Positions 15,977 to 36,746 of a DNA stretch of 36,746 bases are shown piece after piece. The stretch is from an uncultured Candidatus Saccharibacteria bacterium (lineage in GTDB: Bacteria; Patescibacteriota; Minisyncoccia; Phycocordibacterales; UBA918): contig CAYGLK010000001.1 of the NCBI GenBank assembly GCA_964350985.1, forward strand, positions 52,272 to 89,017, written 5' to 3'. A model generated the notes under the pieces. The model saw only the letters and a list, made by a program, of their open reading frames with translations. It searched no databases and was not told the DNA's origin. The number at the start of each line of letters is the position of its first letter. The stretch's first letter is position 1. Position numbers and translations under genes: made by a program.

Positions 15977-16049
15977 GCCATCTTAGCTCAGTTGGTAGAG
16001 CAACGGTTTTGTAAACCGTAGGTCGTCAGTTCGAATCTGACAGGTGGCT
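15977..16049 (+). tRNA. tRNA-Thr(UGU)
   Basis: Cloverleaf: GCCATCT/AGGTGGC acceptor, TAGCTCAGTTGGTAGAGC D arm, ACGGT-TTTGTAA-ACCGT anticodon arm, GTCAG-TTCGAAT-CTGAC T arm. U discriminator, CCA not encoded. Confidence 0.97.
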
Positions 16050-16086
16050 CAAAGCGAGGGTCGCGTGGAGCGAGTGTGGCGAGCGG

Positions 16087-33714: not shown

Positions 33715-35484
33715 TTAGATCTTCTTTGTCTCGATTTCTGTGAGTAAGTGGTTTCCTAGTTCGTTGGTAGTTAGTTGTCTTGGTTCGCCATCTCTGGTCT
33801 CCAAAGTGACATTTTTAGCTTCGACCTCTTTGTCTCCGATAACCACGAAGTAGGGGAGACGATCTGTTTTAGCTTTACGGATCTTCTTTCCCATTGAATC
33901 ATTATCATCCATGAGCTCAGTTCGGATACCAATTCCCTTAAGTTCATTGTAGACCTTTGTGGCATACTCGTTATGTATTTCACTAACCGGGATTACTGCT
34001 ATCTGTACTGGCGCCATCCAAAGTGGGAAGTTCCCACCATAGTGTTCGATTAAGAAGCCAATAAATCTTTCGTGTGTACCTAATGGTGCTCGGTGAATAA
34101 TAGCTGGGGTTTTTTTAGCCCCGTCTTTGTCTGTATATTCAAGTCCGAAACGTTTTCCCATAAATAGATCAAGCTGGTTTGTAGAAGCTGTGAAAGCTCT
34201 ACCGATAGAAGAAAATATCTGGAAGTCCATTTTTGGTCCATAGAAAGCAGCTCCTTCGTTTACAACTTTAAATGGCACTCCTGATTTTTCCATTGCTTCG
34301 ATGGTCATTTTTTCTGCATCAATCCAGTCAGCTTCGTCACCGTGATATTTATCTAGTTTGTTCGGGTCACGTAACGCAAGTTCCATTTCATATTTTTCGA
34401 TTCCAAGAGCTTTGTAATAGTACTCATGTAACTTAATGACGTTAATGAATTCTTCAACAGCATCTTCTCGAGCTACATAAATATGAGCATCATTCATTTG
34501 CATACCTCTCACCCGCATTAATCCAAAGAGACTTCCTGAATCTTCATACCGATGACACCAACCATACTCAGCAAAACGCACTGGTAAATCCCGATAACTC
34601 TTAGGTCTAGCAGCAAAAGTTTTGTGGTGGAAAGGACAATTCATTGGCTTAATGTAGTAGTTTTCTTCCTCAATTTGGATCGGGGAATACATGCTGTCTT
34701 TATACAAGGGTAAGTGTCCAGATGTGTAAAAGAGATCTTCTTTTGTTATGATAGGTGTAGTAACGCGCTCATAATCCCATTTTTGCTCTGTTTTCTTGGC
34801 CCAATTCTCTAATTCTTCTTTTATTATATTTCCTTTAGGTAGCCAGATTGGTAGACCTTTTCCGATAGTTTCATCAAAATGAAATAAGTCCATTTTTTCA
34901 CCAATCAGGCGGTGGTCTCTTTTTTTAGCTTCAGCTATTTGGGCTTCGTAAGCTACTAGCTCTTCATTAGTTTCAAATGCTAGTCCGTAGATACGAGTTA
35001 GCATCGGATTCTTTTCGCTTCCGCGCCAGTAAGCACCAGCGATCTTATCAAGCTTGAAACTATCAGCTGGAATTTCTTCGGCTGGATTTTCACTATGCCC
35101 GCCACGACAAAGATCTGTAAACTGATGTTTGTCACTACCAGCTGTATAGAGAGTAATGGACTCACCTTTAGCGACAATCTCATCAATTAGTTCTAGTTTG
35201 AACTGATTGTCTTTGAAGATATCTTTGGCTTCAGCTTCTGTAACTACTAGGTGAGTAAACTTAGTCCAATTAGAAAGAGTCTTACGCATCAATGTCTGTA
35301 AGCTTTTTAAACTAGCTTCAGTTGGTGCTTCGCCGCCACTAAAATCAAAGTCATAATAAAAACCGTTATCAATCGCAGGACCGATTGTAGTTTTGGCGTG
35401 AGGAAATTCTATTTGCACAGCTTTAGCCAAGAGGTGGGCCAAGGTGTGTCGTTTTTGATCTAAATTATTTATTTGGCTACACAT
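33715..35484 (-). CDS. thrS: Threonyl-tRNA synthetase (no N-terminal TGS domain)
   Basis: RHTLAHLLA, GFYYDF, DLCRGGH, KRDHR, KPMNCP.H, GAAFYGPK, HRAPLG..ERF. Confidence 0.97.
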   Translation of the reverse strand: MCSQINNLDQKRHTLAHLLAKAVQIEFPHAKTTIGPAIDNGFYYDFDFSGGEAPTEASLKSLQTLMRKTLSNWTKFTHLVVTEAEAKDIFKDNQFKLELIDEIVAKGESITLYTAGSDKHQFTDLCRGGHSENPAEEIPADSFKLDKIAGAYWRGSEKNPMLTRIYGLAFETNEELVAYEAQIAEAKKRDHRLIGEKMDLFHFDETIGKGLPIWLPKGNIIKEELENWAKKTEQKWDYERVTTPIITKEDLFYTSGHLPLYKDSMYSPIQIEEENYYIKPMNCPFHHKTFAARPKSYRDLPVRFAEYGWCHRYEDSGSLFGLMRVRGMQMNDAHIYVAREDAVEEFINVIKLHEYYYKALGIEKYEMELALRDPNKLDKYHGDEADWIDAEKMTIEAMEKSGVPFKVVNEGAAFYGPKMDFQIFSSIGRAFTASTNQLDLFMGKRFGLEYTDKDGAKKTPAIIHRAPLGTHERFIGFLIEHYGGNFPLWMAPVQIAVIPVSEIHNEYATKVYNELKGIGIRTELMDDNDSMGKKIRKAKTDRLPYFVVIGDKEVEAKNVTLETRDGEPRQLTTNELGNHLLTEIETKKI

Positions 35485-35601
35485 AGTTTAAGACTTATTA
35501 GATTTATATTTTAACAGGTTTTCTTGTTCCAGGAATTTGCTCTAGGAAAGAACAAATTCGGAACTAAATTCACAATATTCGCTACGCTCTTTTGTTCATT
35601 T

Positions 35602-35651
35602 AAAAAAACGTCCGAGCAAAAAGGTGACAGAGTCACGTTTTTGCTCGGACG
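35602..35651 (-). terminator. Attenuator terminator of the thrS leader
   Basis: CGTCCGAGCAAAAA-C-GTGAC-TCT-GTCAC-C-TTTTTGCTCGGACG followed by T7 on the minus strand. Confidence 0.9.
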
Positions 35652-35783
35652 ATCTTTGTTAGGCAAAGCCGCGGTTCCACCGAGTTTCTAGATAAGTTCT
35701 TACCTAGCACTTTATGATTCAGATTGGATGCCGAAGCATGAACATAAGTCCTAGCGTTTGGTAGACGCTACAATCTCTGATTA
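35602..35783 (-). ncRNA. T-box riboswitch (atypical, no canonical Stem I) upstream of thrS
   Basis: AAACTCGGTGGAACCGCG T-box (core 35670-35681); antiterminator partner CGTCCGAG overlaps the terminator; Stem III-like hairpin; ACC Thr codon in a 5' hairpin loop. Confidence 0.85.
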
Positions 35784-35789
35784 CCTTAT

Positions 35790-35818
35790 ATCGTAAGCTG
35801 ATTGGTAGATTTCGTCAA
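35790..35818 (-). promoter_or_regulatory. Sigma70 promoter of the thrS leader
   Basis: TTGACG-17 bp-TACGAT just after the dnaE stop. Confidence 0.7.
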
Positions 35819-35822
35819 ATTA

Positions 35823-36746
35823 CTAATTTTCAGCCACTACCTCTTTAGTGGCTAATAACTTAGCTTTATCAACCATAATACTAGGAGAATCATTACGGAT
35901 AGAAAGCTTGCCCTTAATAGCAATACAGGTTCCTGGAACTAATAACTCTTTTACTTCTATGTAAATCTTTGGAAAGATAACCATTTCAATATCTTCCTTT
36001 TTATCAGCCAAAGAAACAAAAGCCATCTTGTCTCCTTTTTTTGTTAAGAGTTCTCGTACAACGGTAACCATTCCAGCGGTTACAAGTTCACCTTTCATCC
36101 TGACAATAGCAATTTCTTCTTGGTTGTTTACCGCTTGTTTGATTGAGGTTACACTCGGTCTCTTTTCCAGCTCTTCACTAAAAGCATCAAGTGGATGACC
36201 GGAAACATAAACGCCGAGTAATTCTTTTTCCCAGATTAATTTTTGTAGCATTGGTGCCGGATCAGCAGCTGCTAAATTTAGTTCGTGGTTGTTGTCTGCA
36301 CCAAGTCCAAAGAGTGATTCTTGGGCAGATTCTTTTTCTGCTACACGTTCTTTGTTGAAAGCGAGCATCAGCTCTAAGTTGCTGTGCATTAAGCCTCGTT
36401 CTGCAAACCGATCTAGAGCCCCGGTCATGATCAGTGCTTCTAGAGATTTTTTGTTTAGGTTACGGTCATTAACTCTAGATAAGAAATCAGCCAGGGAAGT
36501 GAAAGGACCGTTTTTCTTTCGCTCAGTAATAATAATGTCAGCAATACCAGCACCAAAGTTCTTGATGGTTGTCAGTCCAAAACGAATGGTTTCTTTTCCA
36601 GGAACAACGGTGAAGTCCGCAAAGGATTCATTTAGATCTGGAGGTAGAACTTCAATATTCATGCGTTCACATTCACGAATAATTTCAGATACTTTTTCAG
36701 TATCGCCGGAGTCTGCTGTTAAGACAGCAGACATATACTCCACGCG
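35823..36746 (-). CDS. dnaE: DNA polymerase III alpha subunit, C-terminal part (5'-partial)
   Basis: EYMSAVL, VLPPDLNES, IRFGL..IK, EKELLGVYVSGHPL, OB-fold TKKGDKMAF. Confidence 0.96.
   Translation of the reverse strand, partial: RVEYMSAVLTADSGDTEKVSEIIRECERMNIEVLPPDLNESFADFTVVPGKETIRFGLTTIKNFGAGIADIIITERKKNGPFTSLADFLSRVNDRNLNKKSLEALIMTGALDRFAERGLMHSNLELMLAFNKERVAEKESAQESLFGLGADNNHELNLAAADPAPMLQKLIWEKELLGVYVSGHPLDAFSEELEKRPSVTSIKQAVNNQEEIAIVRMKGELVTAGMVTVVRELLTKKGDKMAFVSLADKKEDIEMVIFPKIYIEVKELLVPGTCIAIKGKLSIRNDSPSIMVDKAKLLATKEVVAEN

Follow-up and report, generated by a model that had tools for sequence, protein, structure and literature searches.

A compact thrS leader of Patescibacteria appears to be a transcriptional T-box with its specifier in an apical loop

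Results and Discussion

The thrS leader at the locus

We analysed a 36,746-nt stretch of DNA (the window) from an uncultured Candidatus Saccharibacteria bacterium whose genome assembly comprises 972 kb in 4 contigs. On its minus strand lies thrS (33715..35484), an open reading frame (ORF) of 589 aa identified as threonine--tRNA ligase by NCBIfam (TIGR00418, 618.2 bits against a cut-off of 383.65). The upstream neighbour, a dnaE-like ORF called on the same strand, ends at 35823. Positions 35818-35602 of the minus strand hold, all 5′ of thrS, a promoter, a hairpin with the threonine codon ACC in its loop, a Stem III, a T-box sequence and an intrinsic terminator, and the leader between promoter and thrS is ~180 nt long. 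T-boxes are the standard textbook example of tRNA recognition by an mRNA. An earlier note on this DNA had described the leader as a minimal T-box attenuator, and we found the promoter, the 6-bp ACC hairpin, Stem III, the T-box and a mutually exclusive terminator with seven U where it had placed them. We consider it probable, at roughly 85%, that the leader attenuates transcription as a T-box, sensing uncharged tRNA-Thr(GGU) through a reduced, non-canonical decoding module.

Homologous leaders

A strict motif search recovered the same leader at 8 of 80 thrS loci fetched from public genomes, and a relaxed motif returned further, divergent forms. The closest loci for the threonyl-tRNA synthetase (ThrRS) in public genomes are labelled as Patescibacteria, Paceibacteria or Kaiserbacteria-type. 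We then built a covariance model, R1, from the window and the eight public leaders. R1 matched 135 of the 151 genomes of the same Patescibacteria family at E ≤ 0.01; counted from the list of matches, 125 in 123 genomes of the family reached E ≤ 1e-10. More than 120 related genomes show the whole arrangement, which is therefore not a product of chance. Outside the family, within the class, the model matched 5 of 150 genomes at E ≤ 0.001, four times before thrS and once before aspS.

For the comparisons below we aligned 99 leaders: the window, the 8 public loci, 88 loci of the family and 2 from other families. The 88 family loci are reported as 29 of the 30 top loci (L086 was omitted, being identical to L005) and 60 others, and ~35 further strong family matches lie outside the alignment. 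In this alignment, which was fitted to the pairs of the model, 96.8% of the cells are paired, compared with 88.0% after shuffling (none of 500 shuffles reached 96.8%) and 34-43% when the partners were slid by 1-3 columns. A ThrRS gene follows on the same strand in 96 of the 99; of the remaining three, one lies at the end of its contig, and for the other two nothing was hit within 520 nt. Counts out of 99 refer to these leaders throughout.

Discriminator half and terminator

The 3′ half of the leader has the form of a canonical T-box discriminator. It opens with a single-stranded linker (35708..35719) that ends in a purine-rich AG(U/C/A)G and is aligned by the Rfam T-box model RF00230 at high posterior probability; in 74/99 leaders the four bases 5′ of Stem III are AGUG, AGCG or AGAG. 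Stem III (35688..35707), placed both by the RF00230 alignment and by folding, has 8 bp and a 4-nt loop, and a hairpin of at least 4 bp occupies its place in 95/99 leaders. The T-box sequence and antiterminator follow at 35644..35684. In the RF00230 alignment they consist of helix A1 (35684-35680 with 35648-35644), the 7-nt bulge UGGAACC (35679-35673) and helix A2 (35672-35670 with 35651-35649), the last enclosing a small inserted hairpin. The bulge reads UGGAACC in 98/99 leaders; the pairs of A1 and A2 are formed in 97-99%, with compensatory changes in A1.

The intrinsic terminator (35602..35651) consists of a stem at 35651-35609 and seven U at 35608-35602. The 5′ arm of this stem is built from the 3′ strands of A2 and A1, so that terminator and antiterminator are mutually exclusive. 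A strict test found the re-pairing 3′ arm and a U-rich tail in 94/99 leaders, and the other five have weaker tails. The minimum free energy (MFE) structure of the full leader is the terminator form (−64.7 kcal/mol, z = −4.66, with 0/200 shuffled sequences as stable), and the leader without the 3′ half of the terminator folds as Stem III and antiterminator. A terminator in at least 94/99 leaders agrees with the proposal of the earlier note that the T-box acts on transcription.

At the gathering threshold RF00230 gave no match, and the only Rfam hits in the window were two tRNAs. In E-value mode, over a 501-nt stretch, the score was 39.8 bits (E = 1.9e-7) against a gathering score of 93. Stem III, the T-box and its 3′ strand are aligned at high posterior probability, whereas the Stem I and Stem II positions of the model are unaligned, deleted or stretched across the promoter and the last part of the upstream ORF, where many of them do not pair. 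We rejected the Stem I/II/IIA part of this alignment on account of its non-pairs, its low posterior values and the conserved promoter that it covers, and used only the 3′ half.

Promoter and predicted transcript start

The leader is preceded by a sigma-70-type promoter (35790..35818) with the −35 element TTGACG at 35818-35813, a 17-nt spacer and the −10 element TACGAT at 35795-35790; a promoter scan scored it at 9 of 12 consensus positions. A TTGACA-17-TAGGAT-like promoter is conserved in the 98 homologous leaders with enough upstream sequence. Among these, the distance from the end of the −10 element to the first conserved base of the 5′ motif is 7-11 nt in 92, and the −35 element matches at no fewer than four of six positions in 94. 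Upstream of the promoter the sequence of the relatives is not conserved. From the promoter geometry, transcription would start at about 35783-35780, which leaves only ~97 nt between start and T-box. The conserved promoter lies directly 5′ of the motif; therefore the RNA would begin at the junction described below, with no hidden upstream Stem I transcribed.

These data bear on a reading in which the leader is a T-box of canonical order: the real Stem I would lie within the end of the preceding ORF, the ACC hairpin would be Stem IIA of a IIA/B pseudoknot, and the specifier would sit elsewhere. An alignment by cmscan does place the hairpin and the CUA that follows it on the Stem IIA/F-box positions at high posterior probability, and it stretches Stem I and Stem II over 35879-35771. 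That stretch, however, is full of non-pairs with low posteriors and runs across the promoter and the point where the upstream ORF stops; in the relatives the promoter keeps its place before the 5′ motif with nothing conserved further up. The loop also has no conserved downstream partner, and its triplet in sister leaders varies with the amino acid of the gene under control (see below). We regard this canonical order as the least probable of the alternatives considered here, with a chance of only a few in a hundred. The earlier note, which had recognised no canonical Stem I, was right on this point.

The proposed decoding module

The preferred reading places decoding in the ~60 nt at the start of the RNA. 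Their outermost helix, P0, is formed by a 5′ strand (35771..35779, minus strand) with the consensus CAGAGAUUG, whose first two and last five bases pair with a 3′ strand at 35720..35726 (family consensus CUAAUCUG, here CAAUCUG). P0 closes a four-way junction. The near-invariant GA at 35777-35776 is bulged out of it and is present in 94/99 leaders. The inner five pairs are nearly invariant and the outer two covary: the outermost is C-G in 85 leaders, U-A in 3, U-G in 2 and other in 4, and the second is A-U in 89, G-C in 4, G-U in 2 and other in 3.

Within the junction, the specifier hairpin H1 (35752..35770) has 6 bp and the 7-nt loop CUACCAA (35764-35758), with ACC at 35762-35760 followed by the purine A at 35759. 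Changes on both sides occur at all six of its pairs, in 33, 30, 24, 40, 6 and 20 cells. The triplet is ACC in 99/99 leaders and a purine follows in every one (A in 98, G in 1), while the complete loop reads CUACCAA in 65/99 and ACC is preceded by U in 86 leaders, by C in 11 and by G in 2. The triplet is thus invariant among the aligned leaders and the stem covaries, in line with what the earlier note had said of an ACC specifier in a 7-nt loop resembling that of an anticodon.

The other two arms come from folding of the isolated domain of the window, whose MFE structure (−16.5 kcal/mol) is the four-way junction P0/H1/H2a/H2b without unpaired linkers. H2a (35740..35751; 4 bp and a tetraloop) is a variable arm that is expanded in relatives, and H2b (35728..35739; 4 bp and a UUCG tetraloop) stands directly 5′ of the P0 3′ strand. 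Across the leaders the segment from H1 to this strand measures 17-75 nt and varies in sequence; it folds as two hairpins in 66/99 by MFE, and in most relatives a hairpin of 2-7 bp abuts the conserved 3′ motif.

The earlier note had drawn this region differently, with the ACC hairpin followed by one long composite stem, and had offered the complementarity of AGAUUG and CAAUCU as a pseudoknot or alternative fold. The complementarity is real (35776-35771 with 35726-35721) and its register is formed in the MFE structure of the window domain, which together with the covariation of the outer pairs points to the closing helix of a junction and not to a pseudoknot or a competing fold. The composite stem can still be drawn in the sequence of the window, where the CAAUC stretch then falls into an internal loop. 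Among the 99 relatives, however, the equivalent segments gave a mean best helix of 4.23 pairs compared with 4.36 after shuffling, so the stem is not conserved. Given also the junction found as MFE structure and the covarying outer P0 pairs, we judge an arrangement of hairpin and composite stem without a four-way junction to be very improbable, about one chance in twenty.

No K-turn, AGUA/GAA S-turn, IIA/B pseudoknot, F-box or double T-loop was seen when the aligned rows were inspected by eye, an inspection that involved no formal motif search. A non-canonical functional substitute for the Stem II elements may lie in the segment from H1 to the P0 3′ strand. On its 3′ side H1 is followed directly by H2a, and there is no tandem GA opposite the 5′ GA. 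Two candidate motifs were considered and dropped: a K-turn in P0, where the 3′ strand has UC in the place at which tandem GA is needed, and an elbow-platform T-loop made by the AGAGA of the 5′ motif, as these bases pair in P0 and no conserved UGxRA partner was seen.

Other genera and families have thrS leaders that diverge from this plan (L124, L127, L025, L026, L030, L031, L134 and L136). ACC lies on the 3′ side of an internal loop in L025 and L026 and in 9-nt apical loops without the junction motifs in L030, L031 and L136; for L124, L127 and L134 the specifier could not be placed in the 5′ domain. The T-box bulge of L031 is degenerate.

The loop triplet in sister leaders

We compared the thrS leader with other T-boxes of the same genome and phylum. 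RF00230 matched 50 of 151 sampled genomes of the phylum at E ≤ 1e-4, five of them above the gathering score. The earlier note had known of no T-boxes described in this lineage. Our search likewise found no paper that links the two, but T-box-like elements are evidently frequent there.

The same genome carries a second T-box before aspS (54.6 bits; L001 1503-1705, contig C1 at about 214837-215039, plus strand). It has a K-turn, a 5-bp stem with the hexaloop CU-GAC-A, a Stem II that bears an S-turn signature and a IIA/B element, and its UGGC bulge fits G73 of tRNA-Asp. This leader lacks a terminator, and its MFE structure pairs the A1 5′ strand and a linker segment with the start-codon region, which suggests, on the strength of this predicted fold, translational control by an unusual sequestrator.

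Among 20 second-class hits fetched from the family, 18 have a UGGC T-box and the other two are divergent thrS leaders. The ORFs printed after 16 of these 18 have an AspRS-like N terminus as judged by eye; of the remaining two, one is at a contig end, and for the other a different frame was printed. We combined the 18 with the aspS leader of the genome itself (L001) and with L137. All 20 UGGC-bulge leaders have GAC in the apical loop, which is a hexaloop in most of them, together with a K-turn (RCC-NNN-GA ... GA-GG). For 18 of the 20 the ORF is AspRS-like by eye, and for L001 NCBIfam confirms AspRS. In other Patescibacteria families, apical-loop T-boxes with terminators precede ileS, valS and trpD-like genes (L217, L218, L222-L226). 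Their triplets are AUC before IleRS (L217, L222 and L224 by NCBIfam, L225 by its likeness to L224), GUC before ValRS (L226) and UGG before trpD-like genes (L218, L223). Read from these sequences, the apical triplet follows the regulated gene across the sister leaders. The earlier note had asked for just this comparison, and its outcome (GAC for aspS, AUC for ileS, GUC for valS and UGG for the trpD-like genes) favours its proposal.

Two further observations concern the AspRS leaders. The leader L216, from another Patescibacteria family, stands before a gene for a bacterial-type AspRS and its hexaloop has the in-register triplet AAC (Asn); from the sequence, this would fit the sensing of tRNA-Asn by a non-discriminating AspRS. 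Six of the 20 aspS leaders (L120, L123, L128, L129, L130 and L132) have just 37-64 nt from the K-turn hairpin to the T-box and no S-turn signature, and thus a short Stem I without a Stem II domain. Terminator-like hairpins are visible in five of the six; the sequence shown for L123 ended before that region. According to the part of a review available to us, a short Stem I without Stem II does not bind tRNA in actinobacterial ileS.

The changing triplet bears on another alternative, in which the tRNA is sensed through its 3′ end only, by the discriminator half, and the junction with its ACC loop serves as an operator for ThrRS or another protein, or in co-transcriptional folding. Since ACC and the junction motifs are invariant, covariation with the ligand cannot be demonstrated within the thrS leaders, and there is a precedent in the thrS mRNA of Escherichia coli, which carries an operator bound by ThrRS. 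ThrRS recognises the anticodon arm of tRNA-Thr. The loop displays the codon ACC, however, and not an anticodon-like GGU, UGU or CGU, so that it does not mimic that arm; the matching codons before aspS, ileS, valS and trpD-like genes are predicted by decoding of a tRNA and not by binding of ThrRS. We consider this alternative unlikely, if somewhat less so than the two alternatives above. In principle, the ACC loop could also pair within the RNA with the GGU of the T-box sequence, a possibility on which covariation among the thrS leaders does not bear, but this pairing is not transferable to leaders with GAC, AUC, GUC or UGG.

The proposed ligand is encoded in the same genome. The cognate tRNA-Thr(GGU) gene lies on contig C2 (50339-50412, complementary strand), and the window itself contains a gene for tRNA-Thr(UGU) (15977-16050, plus strand), whose anticodon has no full Watson-Crick match to ACC. 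The CCA end is not encoded completely in either gene, and both have the discriminator base U73, complementary to the A of the UGGA bulge. The earlier note had predicted a U discriminator from the bulge and pointed to the tRNA-Thr of the window: the base is as predicted, but that tRNA has the UGU anticodon and the cognate GGU species is found on another contig.

Proposed mechanism

According to the reading that we favour, the RNA would start at the conserved 5′ motif or 1-4 nt before it, and its first ~60 nt would fold into the four-way junction of P0 with its GA bulge, H1, H2a and H2b. H1 would then display the threonine codon ACC and the following purine in a 7-nt loop resembling an anticodon loop, and the anticodon GGU of tRNA-Thr would pair with ACC loop to loop. 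If the tRNA is uncharged, its 3′ end (U73-CCA) would pair with the UGGA bulge and stabilise the antiterminator, allowing readthrough into thrS; without uncharged tRNA, the more stable terminator would form. What the computation itself shows is the conserved anatomy with its covariation, the link to the gene, the agreement of triplet with amino acid and of bulge with discriminator base, and the competing folds; from these we infer where the transcript starts, that the tRNA binds, what part the junction and its GA bulge play in three dimensions and how thrS is regulated.

Several points weigh against this reading. The alignment was fitted to the H1, A1 and A2 pairs of the model and so favours them, and the outer P0 pairs lie outside the model. 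P0 is mostly invariant, with compensatory cells numbering only 3 and 4, in the two outer pairs. The G-C pair beside the bulge is unpaired in 11/99 leaders, mostly as A.C, which speaks against a plain Watson-Crick helix there. H2a and H2b rest on single-sequence folding only, as the region is unaligned across leaders. In H1, the position equivalent to U33 is C or G in 13/99 loops and the loop-closing pair fails in 20/99; the mimicry of an anticodon loop is therefore imperfect. ACC does not vary among the thrS leaders, so codon-anticodon covariation rests only on the comparison between genes, and the RF00230 score of the leader is far under the gathering score. No RNA sequencing run was listed as containing the locus. 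Finally, transcriptional T-boxes generally need an elbow platform, and a short Stem I needs Stem II, according to the excerpted text of two papers (PMC7583486, PMC10482949); the thrS leader would have to work without either.

Comparison with known T-box classes

Four T-box classes are listed in the excerpts of a 2023 paper (PMC10482949) on which we rely here. Class I combines a long Stem I, which carries an elbow platform, with Stem II; Class II is glycine-specific and without Stem II; in Class III, which depends on Stem II and is mostly translational, Stem I is short and the specifier lies in an apical loop of the penta- or hexanucleotide type; Class IV has an intermediate Stem I. A 2023 preprint states, in the portion available, that all ultrashort T-boxes regulate ileS (bioRxiv 10.1101/2023.02.28.530422), and in the available portion of the TBDB paper (PMC7778990) the short-Stem-I model was applied to Actinobacteria and to class I hits whose Stem I was truncated.

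The thrS leader is closest in its decoding principle to Class III, as represented in these excerpts by the actinobacterial ileS leaders of Nocardia farcinica, Mycobacterium tuberculosis and M. smegmatis. Both have a short Stem I without the double T-loop that binds the elbow, an apical-loop specifier followed by a purine, a Stem III and a UGGN discriminator element. As described there, Class III leaders have a K-turn that joins Stem I to a Stem II with S-turn and IIA/B pseudoknot, none of which is recognisable in the thrS leader, and their loop has 5-6 nt in place of 7. Unlike theirs, the specifier hairpin of the thrS leader shares a closed four-way junction with two small hairpins. A further difference is the output: in Class III it is mostly translational, through a Shine-Dalgarno sequestrator, with ileS as the gene, whereas here an intrinsic terminator precedes thrS. 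With the Class II glycine T-boxes such as Bacillus subtilis glyQS the leader has in common, as far as the excerpts go, transcriptional output, the absence of Stem II and a single-stranded linker to Stem III and the antiterminator (PMC10482949). The long Stem I of Classes I and II, which has a K-turn, an internal specifier loop and a distal interdigitated double T-loop (AGAGA plus UGxRA), is not seen in it.

Class I T-boxes, long thrS leaders included, share with it the T-box sequence, the rule that relates bulge and discriminator, Stem III, the switch and the logic of the specifier. It differs throughout from their 5′ half, which consists of a Stem I of ~100 nt with K-turn, internal specifier loop with S-turn, AG bulge and distal loop, followed by Stem II and IIA/B. 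From the Class III-like aspS, ileS, valS and trp leaders of its own phylum, with which it has apical-loop specifier, terminator output, discriminator domain and lineage in common, it is set apart by the P0-closed junction and heptaloop in place of K-turn, hexaloop and Stem II; those leaders keep a basal K-turn and a hexaloop (N-U-codon-A), and most of them also retain a Stem II that shows an S-turn signature of the AGUAGA type.

With its heptaloop, four-way junction, lack of a K-turn, terminator and regulation of thrS, the leader appears from its sequence to fit no described T-box class. The principle of an apical-loop specifier is already known from Class III, as the earlier note had acknowledged for actinobacterial ileS; what is new is the architecture, the output mode and the lineage. 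The literature search that found no paper linking T-boxes to Patescibacteria left the founding papers on the ultrashort class and supplements such as the TBDB tables outside it, so that a prior description is possible.

That two 7-nt anticodon-type loops may bind each other unusually well is an idea drawn from work on pairs of tRNAs with complementary anticodons. A tentative extension of our reading, to which we give slightly less than even odds, is that the P0-closed junction is a self-sufficient, undescribed anticodon-binding fold and in effect defines a fifth T-box class. It would capture the tRNA co-transcriptionally by kissing of 7-nt loops, without elbow platform, K-turn, S-turn or IIA/B, and the GA bulge or the stacked arms would give lateral support. 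The GA bulge is only a candidate replacement for the lateral support that Stem II provides. If this fold exists, it would indicate together with the Stem II-less aspS leaders that transcriptional T-boxes need not have the elements held to be required for fast capture. The thrS leader already breaks the associations on which the classification is built, as it combines a ~60-nt junction and a heptaloop specifier with a terminator end, in more than 100 genomes of a lineage with ultra-small genomes. If the leader works in the way proposed, it would represent a minimal natural sensor of a tRNA anticodon, a compact part for engineered tRNA-responsive switches and, for structural biologists, a new module of RNA-RNA recognition. 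Patescibacteria, with few known regulators, would in that case keep feedback from tRNA charging on at least thrS and aspS.

Other features of the locus and its relatives

Between the terminator and the start of thrS, the 5′ untranslated region contains a structured repeat of ~76 nt (35526-35601, minus strand), which consists of a 25-nt core followed by an imperfect hairpin of ~39 nt. Seven copies are present in the 0.97-Mb genome at ≤5 mismatches to the core, and a search of Rfam gave no match to the repeat. The spacing from terminator to start codon is ~117 nt here, compared with a median of 92.5 nt in the relatives (measured from the end of the model to the ThrRS start), and the repeat probably explains the difference. 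A copy resembling it was also seen upstream of the aspS T-box in L116.

A GGUGGCACCGCG word elsewhere in the genome (contig C1:23862) was dismissed as a chance occurrence, as it lies inside a coding region and on the other strand.

Outside Patescibacteria, the nearest relatives of the ThrRS (~50% identity) are found in Chloroflexi (loci L052-L081). At many of these loci thrS is preceded by a long T-box leader of canonical appearance that has the same UGGAACCGCG core, a sequence likeness that hints at a common history of the thrS gene and its leader.

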